Below, piece after piece: positions 6,981-63,738 of a stretch of DNA of 64,000 bases. The translations under genes were made by a program, and so were the position numbers. Within the stretch, counting starts at the first letter, position 1. Each line of letters begins with the position of its first letter. The DNA is from an uncultured Candidatus Binatia bacterium (GTDB taxonomy: Bacteria; Desulfobacterota; Binatia; UBA9968; JAJDTQ01). The stretch lies in the NCBI GenBank assembly GCA_965213675.1, contig OZ243916.1, forward strand, positions 2,176,001 through 2,240,000. The letters run 5' to 3'. A model generated the notes under the pieces. It was not told where the DNA came from. It made no database searches and saw only the letters and a program-made list of their open reading frames with translations.

Positions 6981-7013
6981 GCTATTGTAATTAGCACACT
7001 AATTTACAATAGC
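6981..7013. promoter_or_regulatory. Inverted repeat upstream of fic, probable operator
   Basis: GCTATTGTAA-N13-TTACAATAGC, perfect 10-bp arms in an AT-rich gap. Confidence 0.55.
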
Positions 7014-9421: not shown

Positions 9422-9467
9422 TTCAATCCATCCGATCTACCTCCGTCCCACGGACGCCTCACGAAAC

Positions 9468-60997: not shown

Positions 60998-61076
60998 GCA
61001 TTCTCTGATCGGCGGCGGTCACGCCTGGGAGCTTGCGCCGCAGCCACGGACGGCCCGACTGAGAAAGGAACCACAC

Positions 61077-61871
61077 GTGGACTTGACGGTTTATCGCGTT
61101 CCCTCGTGGACCACCGCGCAGCCGGGACTGAGGCACGGCTTCGTGGGCCGGAACGGCGGCAACAGCGCGGGCGCGTACGCGAGCCTCAACGTGTCGTTCA
61201 ACGTGGGCGACGACCCGCGGGCGGTCAAGGACAACTATTGCGCCATGAAGGGCGCCGTGGGCATGACCGGAACACGGATGGTCACCATGCGGCAACGGCA
61301 CGGCGACACCATCCTGGACGTGGCCGAACCGTGCAAGGAGGCCGGCGAGGGCGACGCCATGGTGACGGATGCGCCGGGAGTGTTTCTCGGGGTCCTCACC
61401 GCCGACTGCGTACCCATCGTGTGCTGGGCGCGCACCTCGGACCGCAAGCTGGCGGCGGTGGTCCATGCGGGTTGGCGCGGAGCCCTGGCGGGCGTGGCCA
61501 TGAAGACGGTGCGGCACATCGAGCACCGCTACGGCGTGCCGCCCCAGAGTCTTCACTGCGCCCTGGGGCCGGCCATCGGACCATGCTGCTACGAGATCGG
61601 CGCGGACGTCGCCGTCCCGCTGGTGCGGGAGTGGGGCCAAATGGCGGAGGCCGCGCTTCAATCCAGGGACGGCGGCACGTATCTCCACCTGAGACGGCTG
61701 AACGCGGCCCTGCTGGCGGCGGCCGGAGTCCCCGGCGAACGCATCGTTTCCACCGGCCCCTGCACCGCGTGCAGCCCGGCGGAGTTCTTCTCCCATCGCC
61801 GTGAATCGAAGAGAGGCGCCAGCGCCACTGGACGGCAGACCGGTTTCATCGGTTGGCCGGATATGCCTTGA
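61077..61871 (+). CDS. pgeF: YfiH/PgeF laccase-domain protein
   Basis: SLNVS, QRHG, LTADC, HAGWRG, GPAIGPCCYE, FFSHRR; GTG follows AAGGA. Confidence 0.9.
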   Translation: MDLTVYRVPSWTTAQPGLRHGFVGRNGGNSAGAYASLNVSFNVGDDPRAVKDNYCAMKGAVGMTGTRMVTMRQRHGDTILDVAEPCKEAGEGDAMVTDAPGVFLGVLTADCVPIVCWARTSDRKLAAVVHAGWRGALAGVAMKTVRHIEHRYGVPPQSLHCALGPAIGPCCYEIGADVAVPLVREWGQMAEAALQSRDGGTYLHLRRLNAALLAAAGVPGERIVSTGPCTACSPAEFFSHRRESKRGASATGRQTGFIGWPDMP

Positions 61872-61893
61872 GTCGGATGCGGAGGGAGGGGGA

Positions 61894-61933
61894 GAAACAG
61901 AAAGCCCTGGCTGACGCATGGCCAGCCAGGGCT
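61894..61933 (-). terminator. Intrinsic terminator
   Basis: AGCCCTGGCTG-N9-CAGCCAGGGCT 11-bp stem followed by TTCTGTTTC on the minus strand. Confidence 0.75.
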
Positions 61934-61986
61934 CGGCGTACTGTCGGAATTGACCAAGACCCTCAATTCCGAATTGGCTCGAGAGC

Positions 61987-62025
61987 CTAGGTCTCAGTCA
62001 CCTCGCAGCTACATATGTCATTCAT
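61987..62025 (-). CDS. Candidate 12-aa small peptide MNDICSCEVTET
   Basis: AAAGGAGGT SD 9 nt before ATG, with its own promoter and terminator. Confidence 0.6.
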   Translation of the reverse strand: MNDICSCEVTET

Positions 62026-62056
62026 ATTTTGACCACCTCCTTTCTCTGCTGGACCC

Positions 62057-62085
62057 ATCCTAGGGCAGCGAAGCCCATTTGTCAA
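62057..62085 (-). promoter_or_regulatory. Near-consensus sigma70 promoter
   Basis: TTGACA(62085-80)-N17-TAGGAT(62062-57). Confidence 0.75.
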
Positions 62086-62205
62086 ACTTTTGGAGTCTTC
62101 TCCAACGAGACATGGGCCTGAAGGAGAGTCCGGCTTCCTCCTGGTGATTCCCGCCCGCGTTCGTCGTTGAGACGAAAATACGACAGTGGTTGAAAGGGGC
62201 GACTT

Positions 62206-62805
62206 TCAACGGACCACCGCGAGCTTCTTCACGGCGAACGCGGCGGCATTGCGCACCCGTGGATCGGCATCGTCAGTGGCGGCATGGGTGAGCGCGCCCA
62301 TCATTTCCGCGCTCACGTCCCGCGACTTGGAAAGGCTGGTGACCACCGCCACGCGGACAAGCGGCTCGGGATCGCGCATGGCTTCCAGAAAGGCGGGCGC
62401 GCCACCGATGCCGGCCGCGTCCGTGACCGGACCCTCATGGATGTCCCGCAGGCAGTACACCGCCATGCGCCGCTGGGTAGCCGAGCCGCCGCGCAGCAGC
62501 GCTTCCAGACGCGCCGCCACATCCGGGTACTGTTTGCCGAGGCCGGTGAGCAGCAGTTGCGTGGCCCAGCGCACGTCCTGGTCTTCGCTCCCGAGACCAT
62601 GCGCAAGCACTTCGACGCAGAGCGTGGAGGGACGCGCGATCTGCCCAAGGGCGTAGGCCACCGGCCAACGCGGAGCGGCGCGCAACCGCCCTTCGAGGGC
62701 CTCGGCGACCCGCGGCTCCCCGGCCGCCAGGGCCACGAGGCTTTCCACCGAGCGCCGCACGACTCCCTTGTCCGTTTCCTCCAGCGCCGCGATCAGCGGC
62801 CCCAT
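62206..62805 (-). CDS. HEAT-repeat protein
   Basis: Repeated D.D..VR..A...L units (SEDQDVRWA, DPEPLVRVA, DADPRVRNAAA). Confidence 0.8.
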   Translation of the reverse strand: MGPLIAALEETDKGVVRRSVESLVALAAGEPRVAEALEGRLRAAPRWPVAYALGQIARPSTLCVEVLAHGLGSEDQDVRWATQLLLTGLGKQYPDVAARLEALLRGGSATQRRMAVYCLRDIHEGPVTDAAGIGGAPAFLEAMRDPEPLVRVAVVTSLSKSRDVSAEMMGALTHAATDDADPRVRNAAAFAVKKLAVVR

Positions 62806-62913
62806 GCGCGCATCCAGCGTCCTACCCCCTATGCCGCTCACCAGGCACGGTGTCGCACGGCAACACGCCCGTTGGACCCTCACTCCAGAGAGGGGCCGGC
62901 GGCGCGCCGCGCT

Positions 62914-63738
62914 TCAACGCGCCTGAAACGAACCGATCACCCCGCGCAGGCGGCCCGGGAAATCCGTGATGATGCCGTCCACGCCGAGGGCCAGGAGTTC
63001 GGCCATCTCGCCAGGGTCGTTGATGGTCCACACGTGCACCTCGACGCCGAGGGCGTGGGCGGCGGCCAGGGACGCGGGCGTGACGAGATCGAGGCCTTCG
63101 TGCCGGCGCGGGATCTGGAGCGCCCGGCCCGGGATCTCCGGCGGCGCCTGTCCCGACCACAGCGCGGTCATGAGAGCACGGATCTCACCGCCGGAGAAAC
63201 CCGTGGCCACGGACAGGCCGCGCTCGCGGATGACCGCGCGGGCGGAACCCATGGCGGCGTCGCCCTCCGCGGCCACCAGCACCTGCGGCGCCTTGTCGAA
63301 CTCCTCGATGAGATCAAACAACACGCCCATGGCCGGCCCCGGCAGTTCCTTGATCTCCACCGTGGCCGCGGCGTGGGGAAATTCCACGAAGAACTCCCGC
63401 AGGGTGGGTATGCGAACGTCCTGTCCGCGGAACGGATGCGTCGAGCCGCCATCGGCGGTGAATCGGTACCCGGCGTCGAGCCGCTGCAGCGCTCCCAGAC
63501 CCATTTCCCGCACCGCGCCGGCGCCGTCGGTGGTGCGCTCCACCGTCGCGTCGTGAATGATGACGATCTCGCCGTCGCGGGTGGCGTGGATGTCCATCTC
63601 GAGGCAGGTCGCCCCTTCCTCCAGCGCACGGCGGAAGGACACCAGGGTATTTTCCGGCGCGGTTCCGGCGGCGCCGCGATGGCCGGCGATGCGCGGCGGA
63701 GCGCCGGCGAAGAACGCGTGTGGCGTGGGCTGGGTCAT
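62914..63738 (-). CDS. Glycerophosphodiester phosphodiesterase
   Basis: GHRG..PENT, EMDIH.T.DG..IIHD, HVWTIND, GVDGIITDFP. Confidence 0.92.
   Translation of the reverse strand: MTQPTPHAFFAGAPPRIAGHRGAAGTAPENTLVSFRRALEEGATCLEMDIHATRDGEIVIIHDATVERTTDGAGAVREMGLGALQRLDAGYRFTADGGSTHPFRGQDVRIPTLREFFVEFPHAAATVEIKELPGPAMGVLFDLIEEFDKAPQVLVAAEGDAAMGSARAVIRERGLSVATGFSGGEIRALMTALWSGQAPPEIPGRALQIPRRHEGLDLVTPASLAAAHALGVEVHVWTINDPGEMAELLALGVDGIITDFPGRLRGVIGSFQAR

Follow-up and report, generated by a model that had tools for sequence, protein, structure and literature searches.

A divergent, non-actinobacterial variant of the Ms_IGR-5 small RNA family predicted to engage ribosomes through an extended complement of the 16S rRNA tail

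The 64,000-nt stretch analysed here (the window; positions 2,176,001 to 2,240,000 of contig OZ243916.1, assembly GCA_965213675.1) comes from an uncultured Candidatus Binatia bacterium and carries near its end, on the minus strand, a unit with the appearance of a small RNA (sRNA) gene. Sequence comparison makes it a divergent variant, from outside the Actinobacteria, of a known sRNA family, Ms_IGR-5 (Rfam RF02471). The unit joins an extended Shine-Dalgarno (SD) block, SD1, which is complementary to the 3' tail of 16S ribosomal RNA (rRNA), to an open reading frame (ORF) of 12 codons that ends inside a predicted helix, P1. We read it as an independent RNA that would serve to take up a ribosome and be translated, with the function in the act of translation and not in the peptide; in our estimate the chances for and against this reading are about even. 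As far as our searches show, the match to the 16S tail, the conserved frame with its loose peptide and the P1 fold are new.

The initial annotation of the window had described a TTGACA-N17-TAGGAT promoter, an SD, an ATG, a short ORF closed by TAG and a 10-bp hairpin on the minus strand, and all of these are present as described. Its interpretation was split between a peptide with a Cys-x-Cys (CxC) motif, thought to bind metal, to be redox-active or to resemble the precursor of a ribosomally synthesized and post-translationally modified peptide (RiPP), and an sRNA whose exposed SD engages ribosomes. The latter is the claim most favoured by the comparative data, and the independence of the unit and its not being an attenuator have stood as well; the two peptide proposals have not.

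The 16S rRNA tail complement and the micro-ORF

The comparison rests on 183 copies, which reduce to 155 distinct cores. One genome per species was scanned with an exact pattern that demanded both GGAGGTGGT and TGYGAGGTGRCTG, which gave at least 115 stretches, and 65 loci came from the covariance model, unconstrained by the pattern. L188 and L198 (unpublished genomes) were left out, and L071 was unfit for the anchor; for the frame counts L148, cut at the locus end, was dropped as well, leaving 154 cores.

The 16S rRNA gene of the same genome ends in ...CTGGATCACCTCCTTTCT, and SD1 can pair with 15 consecutive bases of this tail, with a predicted energy of -26.3 kcal/mol. For the 2031 candidate starts of ORFs of at least 100 amino acids in the window the best SD:16S duplex reaches -21.1 kcal/mol and the mean is -8.0 kcal/mol, which makes SD1 the strongest SD of the window by predicted duplex energy. 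Its 12-mer core AAGGAGGTGGTC occurs four times in the 4.5-Mb genome, twice antisense of the 16S genes, once within a coding region and once here. The second non-rRNA site (L203:1501-1512, C1:3303428-3303439 of the genome) was dismissed as lying inside a coding region; by eye, this is the 3' terminal part of a clpX-like gene, with a lon-like start after it. SD1 is unpaired in the minimum free energy (MFE) fold of the window copy. Five bases separate the pairable block from the start codon here, and in other copies the gap is usually about 5 nt.

Contiguous pairing with the 18-nt 16S tail extends over 15-18 nt in 151 of the 155 distinct cores. The six SD1 positions that face U are almost always A or G, the exceptions being a few C or T at the two outermost ones, and the six facing C are G in 154-155 cores; opposite G there is C (147 cores) or T (8), and opposite A an invariant T. 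The substitutions across the 155 cores are thus of a kind that preserves the predicted pairing with the tail. Positions 6-14 of SD1 were fixed by the pattern in the pattern-derived loci, and positions 1-5 and 15-18 were free in all. The 18-mer tail is identical in the two genomes tested from Mycobacterium and Streptomyces; the three metagenome-assembled genomes (MAGs) tested had no assembled rRNA end. In one clade of the class (L151-L153, L155 and L156) every base of the SD block is Watson-Crick complementary to the 16S tail, and the block continues to the G of the GTG start; the same clade has a third anti-SD-complementary heptamer, GGTGATC, in frame (codons Val-Ile).

Downstream of SD1 the frame is anchored by an invariant GAGGTG, a second site complementary to the anti-SD (SD2), after which the stop follows exactly three codons later. 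The triplet 15 nt past GAGGTG is a stop in all 154 cores (142 TAG, 6 TAA and 6 TGA). An ATG, GTG or TTG is found 2-9 nt past the SD in the GAGGTG frame of 142 cores, as against 4 and 23 in the other two frames, and in 152 cores the GAGGTG frame runs without a stop, as against 3 and 24 for the others. Since the distance from the SD to GAGGTG falls into all mod-3 classes (43, 59 and 52 cores), the frame is held from the start codon and not from the SD. Its length varies from 11 to about 16 codons. In comparative terms this pattern is strong and points to a translated frame. A stop specific to release factor 1 was considered and rejected: the early copies all end in TAG or TAA, but six copies derived from the covariance model end in TGA. 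A programmed frameshift or read-through at the SD-like site and the knot was also set aside, as no slippery run or conserved extension was seen by eye, with no systematic test made.

The peptide appears only weakly constrained across the family. In the 95 distinct actinobacterial copies of 12 codons, codons 2-4 vary at all three positions, the second positions most; codon 5 is NGG (TGG, CGG or AGG, encoding Trp or Arg), codon 6 is ACN, and GAG GTG is invariant. Actinobacterial copies that are more distant have CGT or CGC, CCT, CTC or GAA (Arg, Pro, Leu, Glu) in place of the Cys codon. The CxC motif is limited to the order of the window, and even there L026 lacks the first Cys. The initial proposal, taken to mean that the conserved function lies in a CxC peptide that binds metal or is redox-active, is not supported in view of these replacements and of the freedom of codons 2-4. 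Within the order the peptides follow x-[D/E/N]-x-C-x(0-2)-C-E-V-[A/T]-E-T, and within the genus the Asp codon (GAC/GAT) and both Cys codons (TGT/TGC) change synonymously only. These C/T changes would also keep a pair opposite G, so that the coding and the pairing reading are not separated by them. Only Glu-Val is invariant across the family; because the same two codons double as GAGGTG and as a strand of P1, constraints on the RNA explain this invariance.

A fold that overlaps the frame

Three helices were delineated in alignment A2, which holds 12 copies from sister families and related MAGs. P1, a long-range helix that encloses the domain with the hairpin and the pseudoknot, pairs GGTGRCTGAG, the codons after the Glu, with CTCAGTYCACC immediately ahead of the terminator. 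P2, with 11 bp, begins at the A of the stop codon and has its 3' strand in the loop of P3, resulting in a predicted H-type pseudoknot. Over P1, P2 and P3 together 92.6% of the alignment cells are paired, as against 33-57% with slid partners, and five pairs are compensatory. In the genus of the window P2 has shrunk to a 4-bp hairpin, and compensatory change is found only in the terminator, two stem pairs of which are affected. The equivalent of P3 in other families is GGGGATTC / GAATCCCC.

P1 is present in the single-sequence MFE folds of 129 of the 154 cores, and at five positions its pairs are of several types, as in ACTGG/CCAGT versus ACCGG/CCGGT, or GGTCTG/CAGATC. Some apparently silent third-position changes co-vary with the P1 partner (GTG/CAC versus GTA/TAC), so that the constraints from coding and from structure overlap. 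The Rfam consensus for RF02471 instead pairs GGTGGT of the SD with GCTGCC and leaves ...GCAGTCACC, the P1 partner, unpaired; the Rfam stem has no counterpart in the window. We favour P1 (GGTGGCTGC/GCAGTCACC) over that stem, a choice which would change the RF02471 model. Both the ORF and the hairpins proposed initially are conserved in relatives; the initial annotation had named the lack of both as a refutation, and this did not come about.

Transcription unit, family and neighbourhood

By its expression signals the unit is a self-contained, stand-alone sRNA gene with its own promoter and terminator (Table 1). The 5' end of the predicted RNA would be at A62050, 7 nt past the -10 hexamer, and the 3' end within the T tract, which agrees well with the independent transcript of about 155 nt predicted initially. 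In a consensus scan this promoter was the sole promoter-like site within 61000-63000, where shuffles expect 0.2. Three sites in the whole window, on both strands, have at least 10 of 12 promoter matches, the other two being TTGAAA-16-CATAAT at 9426(-) and TTTACA-16-TACAAT at 7003(+). Of these three, only the promoter of the unit has a perfect -35 with a 17-nt spacer. The terminator and its U-rich tail were also borne out, although the stem, first counted as 11 bp, has 14 pairs including G-T in the consensus scan.

Table 1. Features of the predicted sRNA unit, in positions of the window
Feature	Coordinates	Strand	Basis or remark
-35 hexamer TTGACA	62080..62085	minus	TTGACA also kept in genus and order copies
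-10 hexamer TAGGAT, 17-nt spacer from -35	62057..62062	minus	relatives have TAGGAT, TAAGAT, TAAAAT or TAAACT
Predicted sRNA body, ~157 nt	61894..62050	minus	Rfam RF02471 match 61895-62050 and similarity to a relative's contigs 61894-62051
SD block AAAGGAGGTGGTC	end at 62031	minus	sequence reading
SD1 AGAAAGGAGGTGGTC, complement of own 16S rRNA 3' tail (14 Watson-Crick + 1 G.U)	62031..62045	minus	own 16S 3' end (L157)
Micro-ORF MNDICSCEVTET, 12 codons + TAG	61987..62025	minus	start, frame and stop conserved
Start codon ATG; stop codon TAG	62025-62023; 61989-61987	minus	sequence reading
SD2, invariant GAGGTG, second anti-SD-complementary site	61999..62004	minus	stop exactly 3 codons after
P1 5' strand GGTGACTG, within the ORF	61995..62002	minus	fold and comparative evidence
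P1 3' strand CAGTACGCC, one bulged A, adjoins terminator	61935..61943	minus	fold and comparative evidence
Small hairpin GGCT/AGCC from G of the stop codon, genus-specific P2 remnant	61976..61987	minus	100% paired and invariant, so uninformative
P3, perfect 10-bp hairpin TCGGAATTGA / TCAATTCCGA, 9-nt loop	61944..61972	minus	arms 61972-61963 / 61953-61944
GGTCT in P3 loop, candidate pseudoknot with AGACC (61994-61990) at ORF end	61957..61961	minus	paired in 13/13 genus copies, never varies
Intrinsic terminator: 14-pair stem, 5-nt loop, T-rich tail	61892..61934	minus	consensus scan; stem 61934-61902

Across the unit the G+C content falls from about 0.70 to 0.53. A 171-nt stretch folds with -72.3 kcal/mol (z = -3.83), and none of 200 shuffles was as stable. 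The RF02471 covariance-model search found the block kept in 39 of 41 related genomes, which rules out a chance pattern. In addition, contigs in three metatranscriptome runs of one sponge-associated study are 95-99% identical over exactly 61894-62051 and have flanks unlike those of the window, and the contigs of this relative thus delimit the conserved block. They are no proof of transcription, since they are assembled, reach beyond the unit on either side and may have come from DNA.

The Infernal and Rfam searches recommended at the outset led to a described family that the initial annotation had missed. In a permissive Rfam scan 61895-62050 (minus strand) matches RF02471, Ms_IGR-5 ("Actinobacteria sRNA"), with 33.1 bits over the full model (positions 1-184; E 2.5e-5 in a 2-kb search and 1.4e-5 genome-wide); neither transfer-messenger RNA (tmRNA) nor any other Rfam family gave a match at the locus in that scan. 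The curated gathering cut-off of the family is 45 bits, and because the score is below it we term the window copy a divergent variant and not a plain member; moreover, the family is named for Actinobacteria, a taxon outside which the window copy lies. Two orthologues of the same order are above the cut-off (58.1 and 46.7 bits), one of them (L003) between the same two genes, and relatives in the class score 49.1 and 48.4 bits. In a control search of 14 well-known genomes, matches at E <= 1 were obtained in two, both under the cut-off, and at E 0.01 in none; the covariance-model searches of more than 40 genomes were run with stricter filters.

The window copy has the same order of blocks as Ms_IGR-5, i.e., a leader starting with A, an extended SD, a short frame, GAGGTG with three codons and a stop, a GAAT(T/C)CC...CAG..CACC block and a terminator. 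Both are stand-alone intergenic units and have the P1 partner ...CAG..CACC in common. The window copy differs in belonging to another phylum, in its length (about 157 versus 184 nt), in the reduction of P2 to a 4-bp hairpin and in its peptide, CSCEVTET as opposed to the WTCEVAAR type.

The RF02471 model matched all 24 genomes of the genus, with one copy each, and 14 of 16 genomes of two other families of the order. Matches were obtained in 26 of 61 genomes of the class, including the window's own; 12 of the 16 other families sampled are all-or-none and four are mixed (f3 4/5, f115 2/7 and f7 4/6, with f1, the window's own family). In the phylum sample two of 151 genomes matched, the window's own and another of its class, and none of the 146 phylum genomes sampled outside the class did (0/146), so that within the sampled phylum the element is confined to the class of the window. 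In Actinomycetota 50 of 151 genomes sampled had a match (46 of 147 without four unpublished genomes). Among the pattern-scan matches listed (80 with titles), most are from Actinomycetota, such as Mycobacterium, Nocardia, Pseudonocardia, Streptomyces, Saccharopolyspora and Nocardioidaceae, and others are from MAGs titled Candidatus Binatia, Deltaproteobacteria, Syntrophobacter(ales) and Ignavibacteriales; two of them (L076 and L088) have the genus-type peptide.

In the genomes searched with the RF02471 model the element is single-copy everywhere except in two. The actinobacterial genome G506 has two matches (C126:9255-9458 and C17:3902-4104; 43.9 and 41.1 bits), and one genome of the window's genus, G006, has a weak second match (C1:2831237-2831384). 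A possible paralogue in the window's own genome, L002 (17.8 bits, E 0.136), was rejected as it has neither SD nor ORF, and pattern-scan locus L137 was rejected as a chance match. A copy of mycobacterial type (L086:991-1171(+), 165 bits) is found on a 7-kb contig of a MAG titled Gammaproteobacteria; the contig is probably a mis-binned actinobacterial one. Locus L091:835-1074(-), titled Leptospira weilii, has the same extended SD, a GTG start, GAGGTGGCTGAG, two further codons and TAG (VNESCCKQLTCEVAEQ), the usual three codons being reached via GCT and GAG within GAGGTGGCTGAG. It gave no covariance-model match at E 0.01 and may be a very divergent homologue in Spirochaetes, an unverified candidate.

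Within the window the element lies between a HEAT-repeat gene upstream on the minus strand and a plus-strand ORF that ends at 61871 and converges on it. The latter matches Pfam Cu-oxidase_4 (PgeF/YfiH family; E 7.8e-67), as its initial designation as pgeF had suggested. No same-strand gene follows the element. In the other families of the order L003, L020 and L026 have the same two flanking genes with the element reversed (L003:1419-1605(+), L020:1497-1700(+) and L026:1500-1691(-), compared with 61894-62085(-) in the window). A gene of about 200 bp, from promoter to terminator, thus appears to be inverted in place between the pgeF-like and HEAT-repeat genes. In the rest of the class and in Actinomycetota the neighbours are mutually unrelated (among them PALP, DUF420, methyltransferase, ABC ATPase, beta-lactamase, PMSR and FUR). 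A Pfam scan of up to three flanking ORFs per side within the fetched loci, covering 36 of 40 loci picked (4 were dropped), revealed no recurring neighbour family outside the order, and no radical-SAM, cyclodehydratase or peptidase partner. The inverted unit and the lineage-specific neighbours therefore argue that the element is no cis-regulatory leader, and they give no sign of a peptide-modification cluster.

Ribosome engagement and the alternatives

In the mechanism we propose, a ribosome would load on SD1 and initiate five bases downstream. Reading as far as the stop would mean opening P1 and the knot, including the P2 strand. With the stop codon in the A site GAGGTG would lie 6 nt from the P-site codon, a spacing like that of initiation, and the anti-SD could re-pair there. 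Given such re-pairing and the unwinding of P1 and the knot, the conserved property would be the engagement and transit of the ribosome and not the peptide. Transit would remodel the 3' domain of the RNA or hold the ribosome; candidate outcomes are that C-rich 3' strands are freed for pairing, that the stability of the RNA is altered or that the ribosome is held longer.

Several observations weigh against this reading. About eight copies have a CTG start where sister copies use TTG, and L075, L092, L131 and L195 have near-cognate start codons only. The counts over 154 cores overstate the independent support, as many copies are close kin. Likewise, the invariance of the GGAGGTGGT and TGYGAGGTGRCTG bases is partly by construction, because the pattern demanded them in 115 loci, and its independent support comes from the 65 covariance-model loci. 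In the class clade with the perfect SD block a duplex of all 18 bp would take in the G of the GTG start, so that full pairing and initiation would be incompatible there. Some codons of the order peptide (D, C, C, E and V) change only synonymously, which makes a role of the peptide possible. As for RNA, the sole library data for the lineage are the assembled contigs of a relative from one study. Passages of PMC4974804 do report ribosome-protected reads for the M. abscessus and M. smegmatis homologues, and also for 6C and F6; these are weak evidence, since these classical non-coding RNAs are footprinted too.

In an alternative reading the SD-like blocks might only bind, either the 16S tail of a free 30S subunit or a protein, in an untranslated regulatory RNA in which the ORF is a by-product. 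This would suit a pairing-preserving pattern of 15-18 nt, which goes far beyond the needs of initiation, as well as the complex conserved fold, the clade in which the duplex would overlap the start codon and the cataloguing of the family as non-coding sRNA. It can hardly account for TAG, TAA and TGA replacing one another at a fixed triplet in 154 of 154 cores, for the exchange of ATG, GTG and TTG, or for a frame independent of the SD, and we regard it as unlikely, if still worth serious attention. Much the same low likelihood attaches to the opposite view, that the peptide is the product and that the very strong SD serves a high output of a 12-residue acidic Cys-x-Cys peptide with a metal, redox or signalling role. 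The ORF is indeed conserved as an ORF, the order keeps its peptide pattern, and the Asp and Cys codons vary only synonymously within the genus. Against this stand the invariance of Glu-Val alone across the family, which GAGGTG and P1 can explain, the substitution of Cys by Arg, Pro, Leu or Glu, the lack of the first Cys in L026, the free codons 2-4 and the fact that the C/T changes also preserve pairs opposite G; nor was an export signal or a neighbouring modifying enzyme found. The RiPP version of the idea, raised in the initial annotation, was rejected on similar grounds: the flanking ORFs scanned in the 36 loci hold no maturase-like neighbour, the neighbours differ between lineages, and 11-14 residues leave no room for a leader.

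A leader-peptide attenuator or other cis-regulator of a downstream gene, for instance one responsive to cysteine, has in its favour the Cys codons of the short ORF and the alternative-looking helices and terminator downstream of it, and Cys-rich regulatory small ORFs (sORFs) occur in mycobacteria (Canestrari et al., 2020, as cited in passages of PMC9094748). As had been recognized from the start, no same-strand gene follows the element and the next gene is convergent. The unit is also inverted between the same neighbours in sister families and has unrelated neighbours across lineages, its Cys codons are replaced in many copies, and homologues are reported, in the passages on them, as discrete sRNAs. 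A cysteine-sensing attenuator was accordingly rejected, and cis-regulation in general is largely refuted and very improbable. The likeness to leader-peptide attenuators and the mycobacterial Cys-responsive sORFs is confined to a short ORF whose translation would remodel helices beside a terminator; unlike those sORFs, the window unit has no downstream gene, is leadered with an extreme SD and not leaderless, and does not conserve its Cys codons.

Published data on the homologues concern the RNA. Passages of bioRxiv 10.1101/2021.12.14.472595 place IGR-5 of M. smegmatis between MSMEG_5794 and MSMEG_5795, with an A at its start, and describe it as a validated, uncharacterised sRNA recovered by NAD captureSeq. 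The RNA was detected again according to an excerpt of PMC10454040, and there is support from RNA-seq or transcription units in S. lividans and S. avermitilis in parts of PMC8079986 and PMC8780764. The ORF, the 16S-tail complement and P1 are not described in the literature searched, which included the main text and three supplementary files of PMC9094748, where the relevant ORF was not found; the original 2013 description was outside the search. In a text search of the literature for the peptide motifs, the only term held by the papers listed (20 of 147 with a match) was 'rtceva', in unrelated subjects.

Among known systems, SgrS/SgrT, RNAIII/delta-haemolysin and SR1/SR1P are dual-function sRNAs whose peptides, of about 26-43 amino acids, are conserved as peptides. 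Like them, the window RNA is small and structured, has a promoter and a terminator to itself and carries a short frame, here predicted to be translated; in the window RNA, in contrast, the frame is conserved more than the peptide, and to our knowledge none of these sRNAs has a 15-18 nt match to the 16S tail. tmRNA likewise has a short frame among pseudoknots in a stable small RNA engaging ribosomes, as is predicted here; it differs by its tRNA-like domain and by lacking an SD and a start codon. A functional analogy can be drawn with 6S RNA and the mycobacterial Ms1, which hold RNA polymerase: a central machine is offered an RNA that imitates its ideal substrate, and its release goes along with a short product made on a template. 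For the window RNA that machine would be the ribosome; there is no sequence or structural relation, and binding is predicted from the duplex energy and the substitution pattern.

A more specific form of the translated-RNA reading follows this analogy. The RNA would be a conserved and strongly transcribed counterpart of 6S RNA that is directed at the ribosome, in which 30S or 70S particles are captured by a duplex of at least 15 bp with the entire 16S 3' tail and held at a pseudoknot roadblock, the anti-SD is handed from SD1 to GAGGTG at the stop, and the ribosome is freed on completing a short peptide of indifferent sequence. We consider this form speculative and improbable, more so than either the peptide or the untranslated alternative. 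If true, it would mean an RNA-based parking or metering of ribosomes common to Actinomycetota and a Binatia-like class.

For years Ms_IGR-5 has stood in Rfam and in transcriptome papers on mycobacteria and Streptomyces as a validated sRNA of unknown function. To this the present comparison adds that the family extends well beyond Actinobacteria, that the feature under the tightest constraint is the complement of the whole 16S tail, with its pairing preserved, that the frame and stop position of its micro-ORF are kept while the peptide drifts, and that the ORF ends inside a helix missing from the catalogued structure. Gene finders and sRNA catalogues each see half of such an object. Viewed as a whole, an anonymous sRNA becomes the subject of a concrete hypothesis of RNA-ribosome engagement that would be testable in M. 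smegmatis and Streptomyces.

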